From Lytechinus pictus (taxonomy: Eukaryota), in NCBI RefSeq assembly GCF_037042905.1, contig NC_087251.1, forward strand, positions 47,928,001-47,992,000: 64,000 bases of DNA. The letters are read 5' to 3'. The notes beneath the pieces are model-generated. The model had not been told where the DNA came from. It saw only the letters and a program-made list of their open reading frames with translations, and did not search any database. Position 1 is the first letter of the stretch; each line of letters starts with the position of its first letter. Both the position numbers and the translations under genes were made by a program. Shown here in pieces: positions 1 to 21,007 of the stretch.

Positions 1-356
1 AAGCTCCCGGAGTATAGCTCTCTCCTCCAGTGAACACTTTAAAATCAACCTAATGGAAATAAGGGGGGGGGGGCAGAAAAAGGGAATTAAAACGAGTTAC
101 ACACTGATTTTGATTAATTAAATTTCTCTAAAACTAGTTTCTGAAAATTTGAAACTTATTGTAGAATTATAAACATGTAATTTCTTCTCAAATGTTAACA
201 GCCAATCAGAAAACGGTATTTTGACGACGTCATCAATATTTGAAAATACTTTTATTGAATTCTACGGGTGAAATTACCCCTATCTGCCAACTTTAATCGT
301 ACAAATGTGTGAATAATGGGTTTTGGCGCACTTTGGATCCATTCTGGCCCACTGTG
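1..356 (-). mobile_element. End of a Transib/RAG-like DNA transposon (RSS-like terminus); rest of element lies upstream of the window
   Basis: Minus strand from 356 reads CACAGTG + 23 nt + CCAAAACCC. The flank 357-361 is CGACG (CGNCG). It truncates a SINE exactly at this point compared with the intact copy at 20811. Confidence 0.65.
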
Positions 357-494
357 CGACGGCTTAAGGTCTTCTCCGAAGGACCTGGTAATGAAGATGA
401 ATGCCTTACCAAAGGGCACTAGCGCACCAAGTGGGAATCGAACCCGGGTCACCGAAATACGAATCTCCCGCTCCCCCGACTGAGCTATCGCGCC
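357..494 (-). mobile_element. tRNA-derived SINE, 5' part (interrupted)
   Basis: Minus strand GGCGCGATAGCTCAGTCGG (A box) ... GGTTCGATTCCC (B box), followed by a body shared with 20811-21007 (CATTACCAGGTC..CGGAGA..TTAAGC). Confidence 0.85.
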
Positions 495-719
495 TCCCAA
501 TCAAATTGTCCCTTTTGTTTCATATCGCGCTTAGCAAGAGGAATAGAAAGATAGTCATCATTTTCATATGATGACATTATTGACATGTCCTAAGGATGTC
601 CCGGTCGTATGTCAAAACTAAAAAATAATAATGATGAAAAATATCAGCTCTTTATTACGTGCGATCCATATCCACCTCACAATTTTCCTACAAATTAAGT
701 GCTTGAACTATAGAGCTGA

Positions 720-901: not shown

Positions 902-3900
902 TAGACGGGTCAATATACGACCAAAAATACCCTTACCCGGAACAAATTGCAACAAATGATTTTTCAATGGTTTTTATTACTATTTGACCTCAGGAATAAC
1001 ATACTAAAAATCTACCAAAATCTGCATCTGGGAAAGTGGTTATTTTCAAGATGGCGTCCAAGATGCCCGCCATTCACTGAAAATTGATACAACTGACTCA
1101 TTATCCACCTTAGGAATCCCTTTTCGGTTCATATTCCATGGTCTACGGGTGAAAACTTGTTGATACAGGCTAGCGTGAATTATAAGCCCTCCAGTGTACT
1201 TGGAAAATCCAAAATGGCTGCCGTAGGCTGAAATCCACAATTCATCTAAGTGGCTTCCACTTCGTTTTTATTCACAGGTTATAAGGGTGAAGTAGTAAAT
1301 TGGAACAAATTACAAGGCCAGCCAGTGGTCTGGTGTGTCCAAAAATCCAAGATGGTGTCAAAAAATCCAAGATGGCTTCCAAAAATGGAGTTTAAAATGG
1401 CTGTAGATAATTAAAATGGACATAGTTCATTAATATCCGCCTAGGACACAATGATATTGGTGTCTAGACCATGTTCTCAATGGTCAAATAAGACACTGGG
1501 ACAAGTTACAAGGACAGCCAGTGGTCCAGTATGTTCAAAAATCCAAGATGGCTTCCAAAAGGGAATCTAAAATTGCTGTTGCTACTTTTAAAAAGCCAAC
1601 ATAGTTTGCTCAATATCCAGAAATGTGATTGTTGTGTCTATACCATGGTTAAATGGGTCTAATAATACATTGCAAGTTACAAGGAAAGTCAGTGGTCTGC
1701 TATGTGCAAAAATCCGCGATGGATTAAAAAAAATTATAAATAATACATAAATCAGACATAGCTCATTTCATATCGGCCTGGGAGATGTGATTTTGGTGTT
1801 TAAACCACTGGTTTCAAGGGTCAATTTATACATTAGGATAAGTTACAAGGACAGTCAGAGGCCTGGTTTGTCAAAAAATTTAAGTTGGCTTCCAAAAATT
1901 GATTCTAAATTGACTGCTGTTACTTAAAGTGCATGGACATAGCTTATATCATATCGGCCTGGGAGATACTGTTTTGGTGTCTAAACCACTGGTTTCAAGG
2001 GTCAAAATAATACATTAGGACAAGTTTTGAGGACAGTCAGTGGTCTGGTATGATCAAAAATCCAATATGGCTTCCAAAAAAAAGATTCTCAAATGGCTGC
2101 TGATACTTAAAGTGGCATAGCTCATTTTATATCCGCCTGTGAGATATGATATCGGTGTCTAAAGTATGGTTTGAAGGGTCAAATGATATATTAGGACAAG
2201 TTACAATGACAGTCAGTGATCTAGTATGTCCAAAATTCCAAGATGGCTTCCAAAAATGGAATAAAGAAATGTCTGTTACTTATAAAAGGACATAGTTTGT
2301 ACAATATCTGTATGGGGAATGTGAGTTTGGTGTCTAAACCATGGTTTAAAGGGTCAAGTAATATGCTAGGGTAAGTTACAAGTCCAGTTAGTTGTCTGTG
2401 TGTTAAAAAATCAAAGATGACTTTAAAAAATGGGGTGTAAATTGACTGTTGTTACTTAAAAGTACACATAGTTTATTAGAAATACACCTTGGAGGTATGA
2501 TATCGCTGTCTACACGAGAGTTTAAAGGGTCAAATAATACATTGGGTTAAGTTGAAAGGATAGTCAGGTGTCAGGTATGTCCAAAAATCGACGATGGTTT
2601 TAAAAATGGGGTCTTAAATGACTGTTGTTACATAAAAGTGGATATAGAACATTACAAATACTCCTTTGGGATATTATCTTGGTGTCTACACTAGGGTTTC
2701 AAGGGTCAAAAATACTTTGGGACTGGTTACCATGATATGCAGTTATCAATTTTGCCTTAAAAAATGGGTTATAAAATGACTGCTGTTACTTAAAACTTGG
2801 ACATAGTTCATACAATATCCACCTGTGAGAAATAACCTTGGCGCCTACACTTAAATGCATGGGACAAATTATCATATTGTTTCATGAGTTGGTAACAGCA
2901 CCCATTTTGATGAAATTATAGAATCGACCATGGACAAAATGAAATACTAACCATCCTTGTTACTTGTCCGAATGTATTATTTGACCATTCATACCACAAT
3001 TTAGACACCAACATTTTTTTCCTACAGACAGTTATTGTAGAACTCTGACCATTATTGAGTGATATGAGTCGTTTTAGATGCGTTTTTTGAAAACCCTCTT
3101 GTGTTTTAGGCAAACTGGACAACTCCAGATCAATGTAACCAGTCCAAACGTATTGTTTTAGCCATGAAATCATGGTGTAGACACCGAAATCATATCTCCT
3201 TGGTGGATTTTAAATGAACTATATGTCCATTTTTAAAGTAACAGCAGTCATTTTAGACCCCGATTTTGAAAGCCATCTCGGATTTTTCGACATACTGGAC
3301 AACTGACTGTCCTTGTAACTAATTTTCTGACTTTTAAAACCATGGGATAAACATCAAAATCAAATGCCCTTGACGGATATTACATGAACTATGTCTATCT
3401 GTAAATATCAGCGGCTATTTTACACAAGTATTTTGTTAAGCCACCGTGGACTTTTGGACATACTTGACCACCTACCCTCCTTGTAACTTATCCCAATGTA
3501 TTATTTGACCCATTTAATCATGGTATAGGCACAAAAATCATATTCCCGCATATTGAACAATGTACTTAAGTTTTTTCACAAGTAGCAACAGCCGCATTTT
3601 TGCTCCATTTTGGGGAGTCATCATGGATTTTTTAACAAACCGGACCACTGACTGTCCGTGTAACTTGTCCCAATGTATTATTTGGCCATTGAAACCATGG
3701 TCTAGACACCAAAATTATATCTCCCAGGTGGATATGATATGAGCTATGTCCATTTTAAGTATTAACAGCCATTTTAAACTCAATGTTTGGAAGCACTTTT
3801 GGATTTTTGGACACACCAGACCACTGGCTGTCCTTGTAACTTGCCCCGATGTACTTCTTCACCATTAAAACCATTGAATAAAAACCAAATTAAAGCCACT

Positions 3901-4237
3901 TGAGTAATTAATAGATGAATTGTTGATTTCTAGCCTACGGCAGCCATTTTGGACACCATCGTGGATTTTCCTGGTATAGTGATAATATTCACTATAAATT
4001 CGTTTACCCACTGGACCATGGAATATGAACCCAAATGGGATTCTAGGGTGGATTATGAGTGAATTATATCCATTTTCAGTGAATGGCGGCCATCTTGAAA
4101 ATAACTACTTTCCCATATGCGGATTTTGGTGGATTTTTAGTATGTTATTCCAGATGTCAAATACTACCAGAAACAGTTAAAAATCATTTGTTGCAATTAT
4201 TGTTTACCGGGTCAAACCATATATATTGACCCGTCTA
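902..4237. mobile_element. 3.3-kb foldback-type non-autonomous DNA transposon, TAG...CTA termini (Academ-like)
   Basis: TAGACGGGTCAATATA (902-917) is inverted at 4222-4237. The arms remain complementary for >1 kb and are built of ~175-bp tandem units in opposite orientation. Imperfect TSD ctct/ctca. No ORF. Confidence 0.8.
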
Positions 4238-5982: not shown

Positions 5983-7404
5983 CAGCGGCGTAACAGGGGT
6001 CGGTGGCCAGGGGGGGGGGGGCAAGCGCCAAAAAATTTCCCGGTCATATCATGGTATGAACAGGCGTAATGGTGTAATATGAGGAGACTATTTGAGAAGG
6101 CCAGTTATTGCGCATCGAGCAGAATATCTTTTTAAAACTTTGCGAGCGAGCGAAGCGAGCGAGCAAAAATTTTGACCTTTTAAGACAAAAATCAAATTTT
6201 GTGATATATTTTGACATTATATCCAGAGAATAATATATTGCATTCTTCTCTCTTTAGATTCCTTTTTTGTGGTCTGTACGCCACTGTGAACAGGATTAAT
6301 TGCGGCAGCGTGAAGAGTAAATAAAAAAATGAGGGGCGCAGTATAGCACATGTGTTAAAAAACTGCTTTGTATAAGTCCCGAGCGAGCGAAGCGAGCGAG
6401 AAAAAAAATCACCTTTTCATGAGAATCTAACTTTGAGCATTTTGATATTATATTCAGTAAATAAAAGCATATCCTACACTTCTCAGATGCTTTTCTTTCC
6501 TTTTTTTGTGTTATTGTTTGTAGAACCTTTGGGGCCATGGCCCAACCTTTCCATACGCAGTGCTGTGCAGTTGGGGTCCGGGGCGGAGCCCCTGAAACTT
6601 TTTGATATCAAAGCCATTTAAACCTCGCAGATTGCCGCTATTTTAATCAAATCGCGGGCATATACAGAATATAGCTTTAACACAACACATTTATTCAAAC
6701 CAGTTGTGTAATGAACCAAATATTTTGAGGGGGGCAAAACATAGCAATGTTGGAAAAATTGTAAAAAGTCGTCAGCATGCGAAGCGAGCTAGAAAATAAA
6801 TGACACCCCCCCCGTGCCTGTATGCCAGTGATTGAACGGGGGGGGGGGGGCGTTAAAGAGCCAATTGAAGGTTATAAATGAAGAGCCCGGTCCTACTGCG
6901 TAAGGTGTCGGGCAAAGCCCCGGTAGATTATTTGCATAAAATTTAGCTCGCTTATATAGAGCGCAATGTTGTATGCAGTCCATCTTTCTTCCCGCTCTTT
7001 AATTCAATCATCGGCAGCCCGGTCGTAATATTTTTTTTTTCTTATCCCTTTTCTTTGTTTTCCAATTTAGCTTTTGACTTATTACAAGTTCGTTTCGCGC
7101 TATTGTTTGCCGTTTTGTCATCTTTTGATTTATTTCCCATCGTGCTATTGCATTACATAGGCCTATTTCGGAATGCTTTGTTCTTTCTGAAATGTTCTTC
7201 TTTCTTACATTTTCCCGATTTCCTTCATTTACCATTTAAAAATGTTTTTTCTTCGTTTTCTTTTCCCTTTCCCTTTCCTTTTCCCCTTTCCCTTTCTTTC
7301 TCCCTCCTTTTTTTTCTTTTTCCCGTTTTTCTTTTTTTTTTCCCGGTGAAACCCGCCAGGGGGGGCAGCTTGCCCCCCCTGCCCCCCCGCCTGTTACGCC
7401 ACTG
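5983..7404. mobile_element. hAT-type non-autonomous element
   Basis: TIR CAGCGGCGTAACAGG / CCTGTTACGCCACTG; exact 8-bp TSD TGGGAACC (5975-5982, 7405-7412). Confidence 0.9.
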
Positions 7405-8958: not shown

Positions 8959-10030
8959 CCCGGGGGGGGGCACTCGACCAAAAAAGTAGTGGGCATGTGC
9001 CGCGGGCGAGACAAAAAACGGGGGCCTTGGAGCGGGCTTATTGTAAAAAGGAGGGTCCTCGGAACGTGCTTCGGAACGACAAATGTTTGTGAAAACGGGG
9101 GTCCTTGGAAAGGCTTGCGTGCATACGTGTATATGCAGCTAGCCTATAAGGTCTTTGCAGCTAGCCCAGCGGCACGGGCGCCGGGTGCGCTCGCGCAGAG
9201 GCGATGGTCGGCCCGGGGGGGGCACTCGACCAAAAAAGTGGTAGGGGTGTGCCGCGGGCGAGGCAAAAAACGGGGGCCTTGGAGCGGGCTTATTGTAAAA
9301 TGGAGGGTCCTCGGAACGGGCTTCGGAACTACAAATGTTTGTGTAAACGGGGGTCCTCGGAACGGATCTCCGTATCTCTGTGAGTGCGTATGCATCCCTA
9401 TGGAACGGGCAATCGTGCATGACGCAGCTAGCGCGGCCTCTGCCGGGTGCGCTCGCGCTTAGGCGATGGTCGAAAAGCGCTCTACGGCCGCTTTTCACCA
9501 AAATTGTAGCAGATCAATGCGACCGGAACGGCGTAACGAAAAATATGCAAAGCTTTGGAGCGGATTTCTTTCTTCTTTTTTCTCGATAAGAAGGAAATGC
9601 TATGCCTTGGAGCGGCTTTCTTTGTTCTTTTTCTCAATAAGACAAAAATGCTATGCCTTGGAACGGAAATTTGAGTGTAAAAATGGGGGTCCCCTCCGCG
9701 GCACATACCCACTATGCGTTATATACTGAGTGCCCCCCCCCCCGGGATGGTCGGACAGCGCTCAGCGGCCGCTTTTTACCAAAATTGCAGCTCATTGTGG
9801 CGGATCAATGCGATCGGAACGGCGTAACGAAAAATATGCGAAGCTTTGGAGCGGATTTCTTTCTTCTTTTCTCTCGATAACAAGAAAATGCTATGCTTCG
9901 GAGCGGCTTTCTTAGTTCTTTTTCTTAATAAGATGAAAATGCTATGCCCTGGAACGGAAATTTGAGTGTAAAAATGGGGGTCCCCTCCGCGGCACATACC
10001 CACTATGCCTTATATACTGAGTGCCCCCCC
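8959..10030. mobile_element. CCCGGG(G)nCACT-family MITE (outer copy)
   Basis: Left TIR CCCGGGGGGGGGCACTC; right GAGTGCCCCCCC (terminal GGG lost); 8-bp TSD CCCTACAT (8951-8958, 10031-10038). Confidence 0.85.
9212..9746. mobile_element. Same-family MITE nested inside the outer copy
   Basis: CCCGGGGGGGGCACTC ... GAGTGCCCCCCCCCCCGGG; exact 8-bp TSD ATGGTCGG (9204-9211, 9747-9754); highly similar to the host element halves. Confidence 0.92.
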
Positions 10031-11785: not shown

Positions 11786-12668
11786 CTTGACACCAGAGGT
11801 TATAATTAGGTATACCCCCTCCCCTTTTAAATGTTTCATTTCATGCAAGTAAAATATTTTCATGCCCCACTTAGAAATTTAAGGAAGCCTATATAGTTGC
11901 AGAAATGCCTCCTGTATACATGCATGACCAGGGGAAGATCCAGGGGGGGGCACATCCAACCCCTCCCCTCCTTGAGAGCCATTATCAAAATTGTTAATGT
12001 AAATTGCTGCTTTTACACGTGTGCCCCCCTTTGAAAGTCAGCATAGGAATATTTTTTTTTGCTTTTCAAATTTTACCTGGATGAAATGAAATGCATTTTT
12101 AGGTGAAAACATTTTTATTTTTGCTTGTCAAATTTTCCTTCCAAAAAGGAAAATGAGCCCCCCCCCCTTGGAAAATCCTGGATCCGCCCCTGCACAATGA
12201 CCATGTGATAATTCTTATTCTTAATAGTACAATTATCACGGATCCAGGGATGGAGGAACTGGGGCACCCCCAAGATAGACATTTCGGAGAAGCTCAGAAA
12301 GAGCAGTTGATCTGTTCTTGACCCTTTCAAGAATTTCATTTTTTTTTACTCCTCACACCCCCTCCCCCTTCATGCAGGTACATGTATATCCTGGACCTGC
12401 CTCTACTTTGCAGTCTTTGAACAAAAAAAGCTTACACAGCTTGTAATACACAGTCATACACACAATTACATTTCATTATTGCTCTCCCCCCTCCTCAAGC
12501 CTGAATCTCCCCACTTTGTACAATGCACATTCAGCCACTCTCGTGATCACATGACACGCACACACTGGCGTAAATCCGTGTTGATGGGTGGGGGGGATGA
12601 CTGAAATATTTTGGCATTTTTTTGCAATCATGTTTCAGATATGCAAGGAATTGTCATTGATATGTCCA

Positions 12669-20810: not shown

Positions 20811-21007
20811 GGAATGATAGCTCAGTCGGTAGAGCGGGGGTTTCGGATTCCGGTGACCTGAATTTGATTCTCACTTGGTACATTAGTGCTCTTTAGTAAG
20901 GCGCATCCTCATTACCAGGTCTCGGAGAGGACATTAAGCTGTCCGTCCTCTGGTTGTTTGCTTACAAACATTCATGCTTTCATAGCAATCAGGTAAACAA
21001 CCACCAT
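20811..21007 (+). mobile_element. tRNA-derived SINE
   Basis: GATAGCTCAGTCGGTAGAGCG head; same family as 357-494. Confidence 0.8.

Follow-up and report, generated by a model that had tools for sequence, protein, structure and literature searches.

Within the window, the whole 64,000-nt stretch of Lytechinus pictus DNA that was analysed (C7:47928001-47992000), the head of a SINE (minus strand, approximately 498-362) ends at a junction with the V(D)J recombination signal sequence (RSS) heptamer CACAGTG, read at 356-350 on the minus strand. The heptamer is followed by a spacer of 23 nt (349-327, minus strand) and by the nonamer-like segment CCAAAACCC (326-318, minus strand), which agrees with ACAAAAACC at seven of nine positions, and CGACG lies just outside it on the plus strand (357-361), all of which direct reading bore out as originally described. 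The features of the locus are:

120-356, minus strand: surviving 237 bp of an approximately 2.0-kb non-autonomous Transib-type element of family F1, 94.5% identical to copy L034
321-356, minus strand: 36-bp terminal inverted repeat (TIR), identical to TransibN1_SP (Fig. S4g of PMC1131882, compared by eye) at 32 of 36 positions
346-356, minus strand: outer conserved block, positions 1-11 of the end, which holds the RSS-identical CACAGTG (356-350) and is invariant in nine of nine aligned ends
321-334, minus strand: inner conserved block AAAGTGCGCCAAAA, positions 23-36 of the end, with 13 of 14 columns invariant in all nine aligned ends and the other column in eight of nine
318-326, minus strand: nonamer-like segment, of which just the first six letters fall inside the conserved block; positions 37-39 vary
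357-361, no strand: target site CGACG, one copy of 5 bp, the second copy having been lost with the remainder of the element
362-498, minus strand: SINE head, host of the insertion, start approximate, 81% identical to the copy at 20816-20939

The nine aligned ends come from two families and two other genomes, and the name 5′ for the window-type F1 end is a convention only. The identity between the SINE head and its sister copy extends over 128 nt, and at the point where the window copy gives way to the heptamer, this copy and one more found upstream continue into a GTCCTCT tail. The host had been called a tRNA-SINE, a label of which the SINE part stands, while the tRNA part has slender backing: ARAGORN found no tRNA in the window, neither Rfam nor ARAGORN supplied a name for the SINE, and a T-loop-like 13-mer at 445-433 scored far below the Rfam threshold. 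This 13-mer and box A/B-like motifs are the basis of the label.

The RSS-like look by itself is weak evidence. In the window, 0.26% of all 9-mers reach seven of nine matches to the nonamer, and the eight heptamers present are expected to yield 0.12 chance pairings with such a nonamer at spacers of 12 ± 1 or 23 ± 1 nt, and 0.02 per window at exactly 23; an unrelated heptamer at 6288 (minus strand) has a 7/9 match at a spacer of 11. The boundary itself is real, because the fetched copies all begin at CAC. A genome search with bases 1-361 returned 251 candidates, 40 of which were scored, and all 40 match, at 95-97% identity except for the window itself. Among the 30 loci fetched (the window's own included, and as best-scoring copies leaning towards similarity), homology runs from CAC inward in all 30 and begins with CACAGTG in 29, while CGNCG precedes 25 of the 30 ends against a background of 0.0005 per base in the window. 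The break in the SINE had been read as an insertion boundary, and this was confirmed by the boundary common to 30/30 loci and by the two SINE copies that continue into the GTCCTCT tail.

A genome-wide pattern of the two end blocks, placed 9-14 nt apart, gave 716 exact matches (control, 0), and two size classes share it: F1 (approximately 2.0 kb), which includes the window end, and F2 (approximately 1.2 kb). Exact F1 ends number 105 of the window type and 102 of the partner type. Of 100 window-type ends listed, 74 have a listed partner no more than 20 kb away, at a median distance of 2015 bp, and 55 of these 74 listed pairs span 1.8-2.3 kb; the other 26 have no exact partner within 20 kb, a count that mutated partners would inflate by escaping exact matching. 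The largest listed pairing (18.8 kb, in a cluster on C13) is probably spurious. A 5-bp CGNCG duplication flanks every one of the 14 complete elements that were fetched (11 F1 and 3 F2, picked by two exact ends and hence biased towards intact duplications); it is exactly 5 bp long in nine and in five sits in CGG/CCG runs where 8 bp fits too. The collection of copies and duplications proposed with the original prediction thus placed the boundary at CACAGTG in all but one of the fetched loci and returned a 5-bp duplication from every complete copy.

The copies examined have no coding capacity. Their longest stop-free frames are 111 aa (F1) and 84 aa (F2), the F1/F2 interiors gave no real tblastn match to RAG1L and no match to 150 RAG1-like representatives, and a Transib/RAG1-core ORF, which the original prediction had proposed to look for inside the element, was absent from them. 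Among pairs longer than 2.6 kb we inspected six long copies and the C13 array (seven pairs, the C13 array included, lie outside the six), and the six long copies (4.2-7.9 kb) proved to be ordinary copies with nested inserts, which are LINE-, Penelope- or Tc1-like as judged by eye from their translations. F1 copies of approximately 6.1 kb (L042, L043 and L044) carry a similar 4-kb insert with LINE-like remnants at two independent sites, the C8 pair being one duplicated block with common flanks and a common neighbour; an F1 element with this LINE-like cargo may have moved as a unit. Rare spacer variants, of which two of four were opened, led to older gene-less F2 copies. This older F2 subfamily (L051:3780-4954 and L050:4462-4943) is 74-77% identical to young F2, which points to more than one wave of activity. 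Some copies are 98-100% alike over hundreds of bases and, judged by such matches, the family is young and abundant.

Some elements are inserted side by side with 5 or 8 nt between them, so that the CGNCG target of a previous insertion served again (L029:1737-1741, L039:2047-2054 and a further four places). Similar 3′ ends are present in two metagenome contigs (L048:50-188 and L049:367-526), where 140-160 nt match F1 at 76-81% identity, and relatives therefore occur in other genomes. These were the two ends returned by the metagenome search, both gene-less; the viral contigs searched for such ends gave 0 matches, and a foreign 3′ end used as query retrieved short stretches of F1-type end sequence.

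In block layout and spacing, partner ends agree with the window end, the gap between outer and inner block being 11 nt at both ends of the element. Across the nine aligned ends (F1, F2, older F2 and the two metagenome contigs), a single letter is the only variation at positions 1-11, 13 and 23-36, and each of the nine has a TIR that starts with CAC and, about 23 nt from the heptamer, a further A-rich block. The spacer is partly conserved, and the conserved second block is 14 bp long and differs from the RSS nonamer. A nonamer score of 7/9 is reached by the window end type only, the other eight ends scoring 5/9 or 6/9. Conservation of the nonamer-like segment among copies, on which the original prediction depended, accordingly holds for its first six letters and fails for its last three, positions 37-39. 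A genome-wide pattern with a gap of 0-8 nt revealed no end in which the inner block lies 11 nt closer; its one match (versus 716) is a 3-nt deletion.

The window copy is a truncated solo end. Positions 356-120 align with nt 1-237 of the complete copy L034 at 94.5% identity over 237 nt and then the similarity stops, and homology to all 29 other loci breaks off at the same place. Upstream, the remainder of the SINE followed by CGACG and a CAC-starting TIR had been predicted. By motif scan and blastn, the remainder of the element and its far end are absent from the window and from 19.8 kb upstream; the same 19.8 kb contain neither a second CGACG junction nor an element ORF, no orphan SINE tail was found there or in the window, and no partner end lies near the window on C7 among the genome-wide partner matches listed (exact matches only). 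The failure of this upstream prediction reflects the truncation of the window copy at 237 bp and does not count against the reality of the element. In contigs of four public runs the region is covered merely by short repeat pieces, and among those listed neither junction is bridged. With one end left, the remnant should be immobile, and the window end is a dead fragment of a known Transib kind.

We conclude with high confidence that a non-autonomous Transib DNA transposon of the TransibN1_SP type inserted into the SINE at CGTCG/CGACG and that everything beyond nt 237 was lost later. A Transib transposase supplied in trans, presumably Transib1_SP-like, would have bound both blocks of each end, made nick-hairpin cuts at the border of the heptamer, as known for HzTransib and RAG (PMC4840297), and reinserted the element at CGNCG through cuts staggered by 5 bp. 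A deletion or rearrangement after insertion would then have eliminated the far end along with the second copy of the target and the tail of the SINE.

The end consensus of 21 Transib families consists of heptamer, 23-bp spacer and nonamer (Kapitonov and Jurka, 2005, PMC1131882), and the 36-bp end of TransibN1_SP from the purple sea urchin, identical at both ends of that element, is of the same type as the window end (Fig. S4g of that paper). The layout that had been regarded as unusually RSS-like is thus the published one. The same figure gives CGNCG on the left flank in 10 of 11 TransibN1_SP copies. Compared by eye with the figure, the window end differs from TransibN1_SP at positions 14, 15, 16 and 20. 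F1 and F2 share with TransibN1_SP, as drawn there, the two conserved blocks and their spacing at both ends, the 5-bp CGNCG duplications and the lack of genes, but TransibN1_SP is approximately 0.9 kb long and has identical consensus ends, unlike F1, whose two ends have different spacer letters. We therefore file F1/F2 as a probable relative of TransibN1_SP and not as the same family, a likeness drawn from the ends alone between elements of different size.

The autonomous Transib1_SP (4132 bp, with a 676-aa transposase and a CGGCG duplication; PMC1131882) resembles F1/F2 in this CGGCG target duplication and is most likely the kind of enzyme that serves them, although no such autonomous element was found in this genome. 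CGNCG, put forward as the Transib target, holds for the sea-urchin family and not for Transib generally, as mosquito families prefer cCASTGg or cCAWTGc (PMC1131882). The ends of the published family served in 2005 as evidence for an origin of the RSS from Transib, and with the RSS likeness of Transib ends in print since then, the window end by itself changes nothing. The F1 family, with its sharp CGNCG target, offers a natural DNA substrate on which sea-urchin Transib or RAG1L could be assayed.

No Transib transposase or autonomous element with F1/F2 ends was found in RAG1-based searches that could miss a classic Transib enzyme. Such an absence is weak evidence, because the Pfam RAG1 model can miss these enzymes, as a Drosophila Transib without an InterPro hit illustrates (10.64898/2026.08.26.747230). 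The model gave 19 genome matches, 16 of them partial, and the two full-length ones that were opened are RAG1L:

L040:3897-5735 (C182, an unplaced contig; same score on C233), plus strand: open RAG1L frame of 612 aa with DDE-type motifs
L040:7440-8315 and 8993-9388 (C182), minus strand: kelch and PHD RAG2L-like frame facing the 612-aa RAG1L frame
L041:3818-5692 (C4 near 15.675 Mb): open RAG1L frame of 624 aa with DDE-type motifs

The two RAG1L frames are 49% identical, and the one on C182 has its best match in amphioxus RAG1L and matches HzTransib merely at E 3.6e-5. No RAG2L frame of at least 120 aa lies by the 624-aa frame in the 9.5 kb fetched. Ends of the F1/F2 type, and DNA similarity to these families, are absent from C182:4500-30000 (25.5 kb) and C4:15671000-15680500 (9.5 kb), which represent two of the three full-length loci, C233 and the 16 partial matches lying outside this comparison. 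Conversely, no RAG1L or RAG2L lies between F1/F2 ends in the copies examined. A motif check and three PDB searches revealed no classic Transib among the 150 RAG1-like representatives, and the atlas returned solely RAG1-type or unnamed clusters. The original description of a Transib/RAG-like end is therefore retained in part: a Transib-type end lies in the SINE at CGNCG, and its RAG-like side is lost, as no such ends occur at the RAG1L loci examined.

Mobilisation of the family by the host RAG1L/RAG2L, as a non-autonomous RAGL element, instead of by a Transib transposase is highly improbable. Two open RAG1L frames exist, that on C182 facing a RAG2L-like frame, no Transib transposase emerged from the genome searches, and spRAG1L is able to cleave RSSs when combined with mouse RAG2 (PMC4840297), all of which would suit such a scheme. 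F1/F2 share the CAC start and the 5-bp duplication with the RAGL and ProtoRAG elements (PMC7204232, PMC10629977 and PMC4411706). However, the F1/F2 ends have no link to the RAG1L regions examined on C182 and C4, F1/F2 carry no RAG1L or RAG2L inside, and where RAGL ends are A-rich at positions 8-10 (PMC7204232) these read GGC in nine of nine ends. TIRs, moreover, were not found around echinoid RAGL genes (PMC9885083).

An arrangement in which the window end acts as a 23-RSS and its partner as a 12-RSS, which the original prediction had raised as a possibility, deserves scarcely any credence. Certain insect Transibs are asymmetric (PMC1131882), the 12-register scores 4-6/9 in 3′-type ends versus 3-4/9 in 5′-type ends, and AA occupies nonamer positions 5-6 in all nine ends in both the 12 and the 23 register. 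Against this, block spacing is identical at both ends and the genome-wide pattern revealed no end with a closer inner block of this kind; the longer A-run at position 22 of the 3′ ends is missing in two older copies and also in TransibN1_SP, whose two ends are identical in the figure cited. We gave the difference in the 12-register little weight because it is absent from these older copies and from the published family. With the V(D)J 23-RSS, the asymmetric Transibs (Transib5, Transib2_AG and TransibN1-3_AG) and PflRAGL-A, the F1/F2 ends share the RSS-consensus heptamer, AA at nonamer positions 5-6 and a GC-rich 5-bp target, but unlike them they show no length asymmetry, their spacer is partly conserved and a 14-bp second block stands in place of an RSS nonamer. 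The window end provides no invertebrate 12/23 pair. That the SINE breaks at a sequence resembling an RSS by chance, or that the end belongs to another transposon superfamily, has a negligible probability: the 0.12 pairings at canonical spacing expected per window speak for chance, but the boundary shared by all fetched loci, the duplications around every complete copy and the agreement with a published Transib end speak against both, and the chance reading is already refuted. The Transib insertion outlined above is the reading retained here.

Ten back-to-back pairs of ends were found, with 5 nt between the ends in three, 8 nt in three and none in four. The four zero-gap fusions of a 3′ end to a 5′ end, in which no base is gained or missing, are all on C13 (13.886-14.024 Mb), and no further joints appeared when up to 2 mismatches or gaps of 0-30 nt were allowed:

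C13:13881552-13892374 (L056, L057), 13956315/16 and 14023761/62 (L054, L055): F1 3′ end fused to 5′ end, four joints (trimer and duplicated permuted fragment)

Two of the joints belong to a head-to-tail trimer with CGGCG at its start and at its end (one duplication); they sit in blocks 99.6% alike, and unequal crossing-over therefore probably lengthened a dimer. The other two fall within a duplication (99.4% identity) of a circularly permuted 1.2-kb fragment, which consists of F1 nt 1746-2017 followed by nt 1-927. Its halves beside the joint are 98.9% and 100% identical to the L034/L037 subvariant, compared with 92.6-96% and 81-95% for nine other copies, and this shared best match fits an origin of both ends from a single molecule or from sister copies. 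The four joints probably represent one event, because all are at one locus.

The precise fusion is compatible with nick-hairpin cleavage at the heptamer border. We give about even chances to the proposal that signal joints of the V(D)J type arise in the germline through this Transib family, blunt ends cut by transposase being ligated precisely into a circle or dimer that returned to the chromosome; its rival is a slippage deletion of the 5-bp target between adjacent copies. The closest analogues are the end-to-end joints of hobo/Hermes episomes (PMC2803484) and V(D)J signal joints, but the former are extrachromosomal and the latter somatic, whereas the C13 joint lies within an assembled genome, as seen in the assembly alone, and belongs to a Transib-type family. 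Perfect end-to-end joints are known for hAT episomes (PMC2803484) and for ProtoRAG (10.1101/100735), and HzTransib with mouse RAG2 forms signal joints on RSS substrates (PMC4840297). Titles and abstract openings in a limited literature revealed no genomic Transib joint in print. If transposase and host end joining made the C13 joint, precise ligation of signal ends, a V(D)J step, would already exist in a symmetric invertebrate Transib. It is highly unlikely that the host RAG1L/2L made this joint, or that a 12-type and a 23-type signal are superimposed in each end, with A-tracts at 23-25 and 33-36, one helical turn apart.

Other repeats occur in the window. To the right of the SINE, positions 934-4212 hold an array of approximately 70%-identical repeats with a period near 200 bp, the second arm of which is inverted. 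Four more CACAGTG heptamers, at 6288 and 7406 (minus strand) and at 12667 and 56295 (plus strand), are followed by GC-TA-type letters, with G-rich runs in three, and are probably the ends of another short repeat family.
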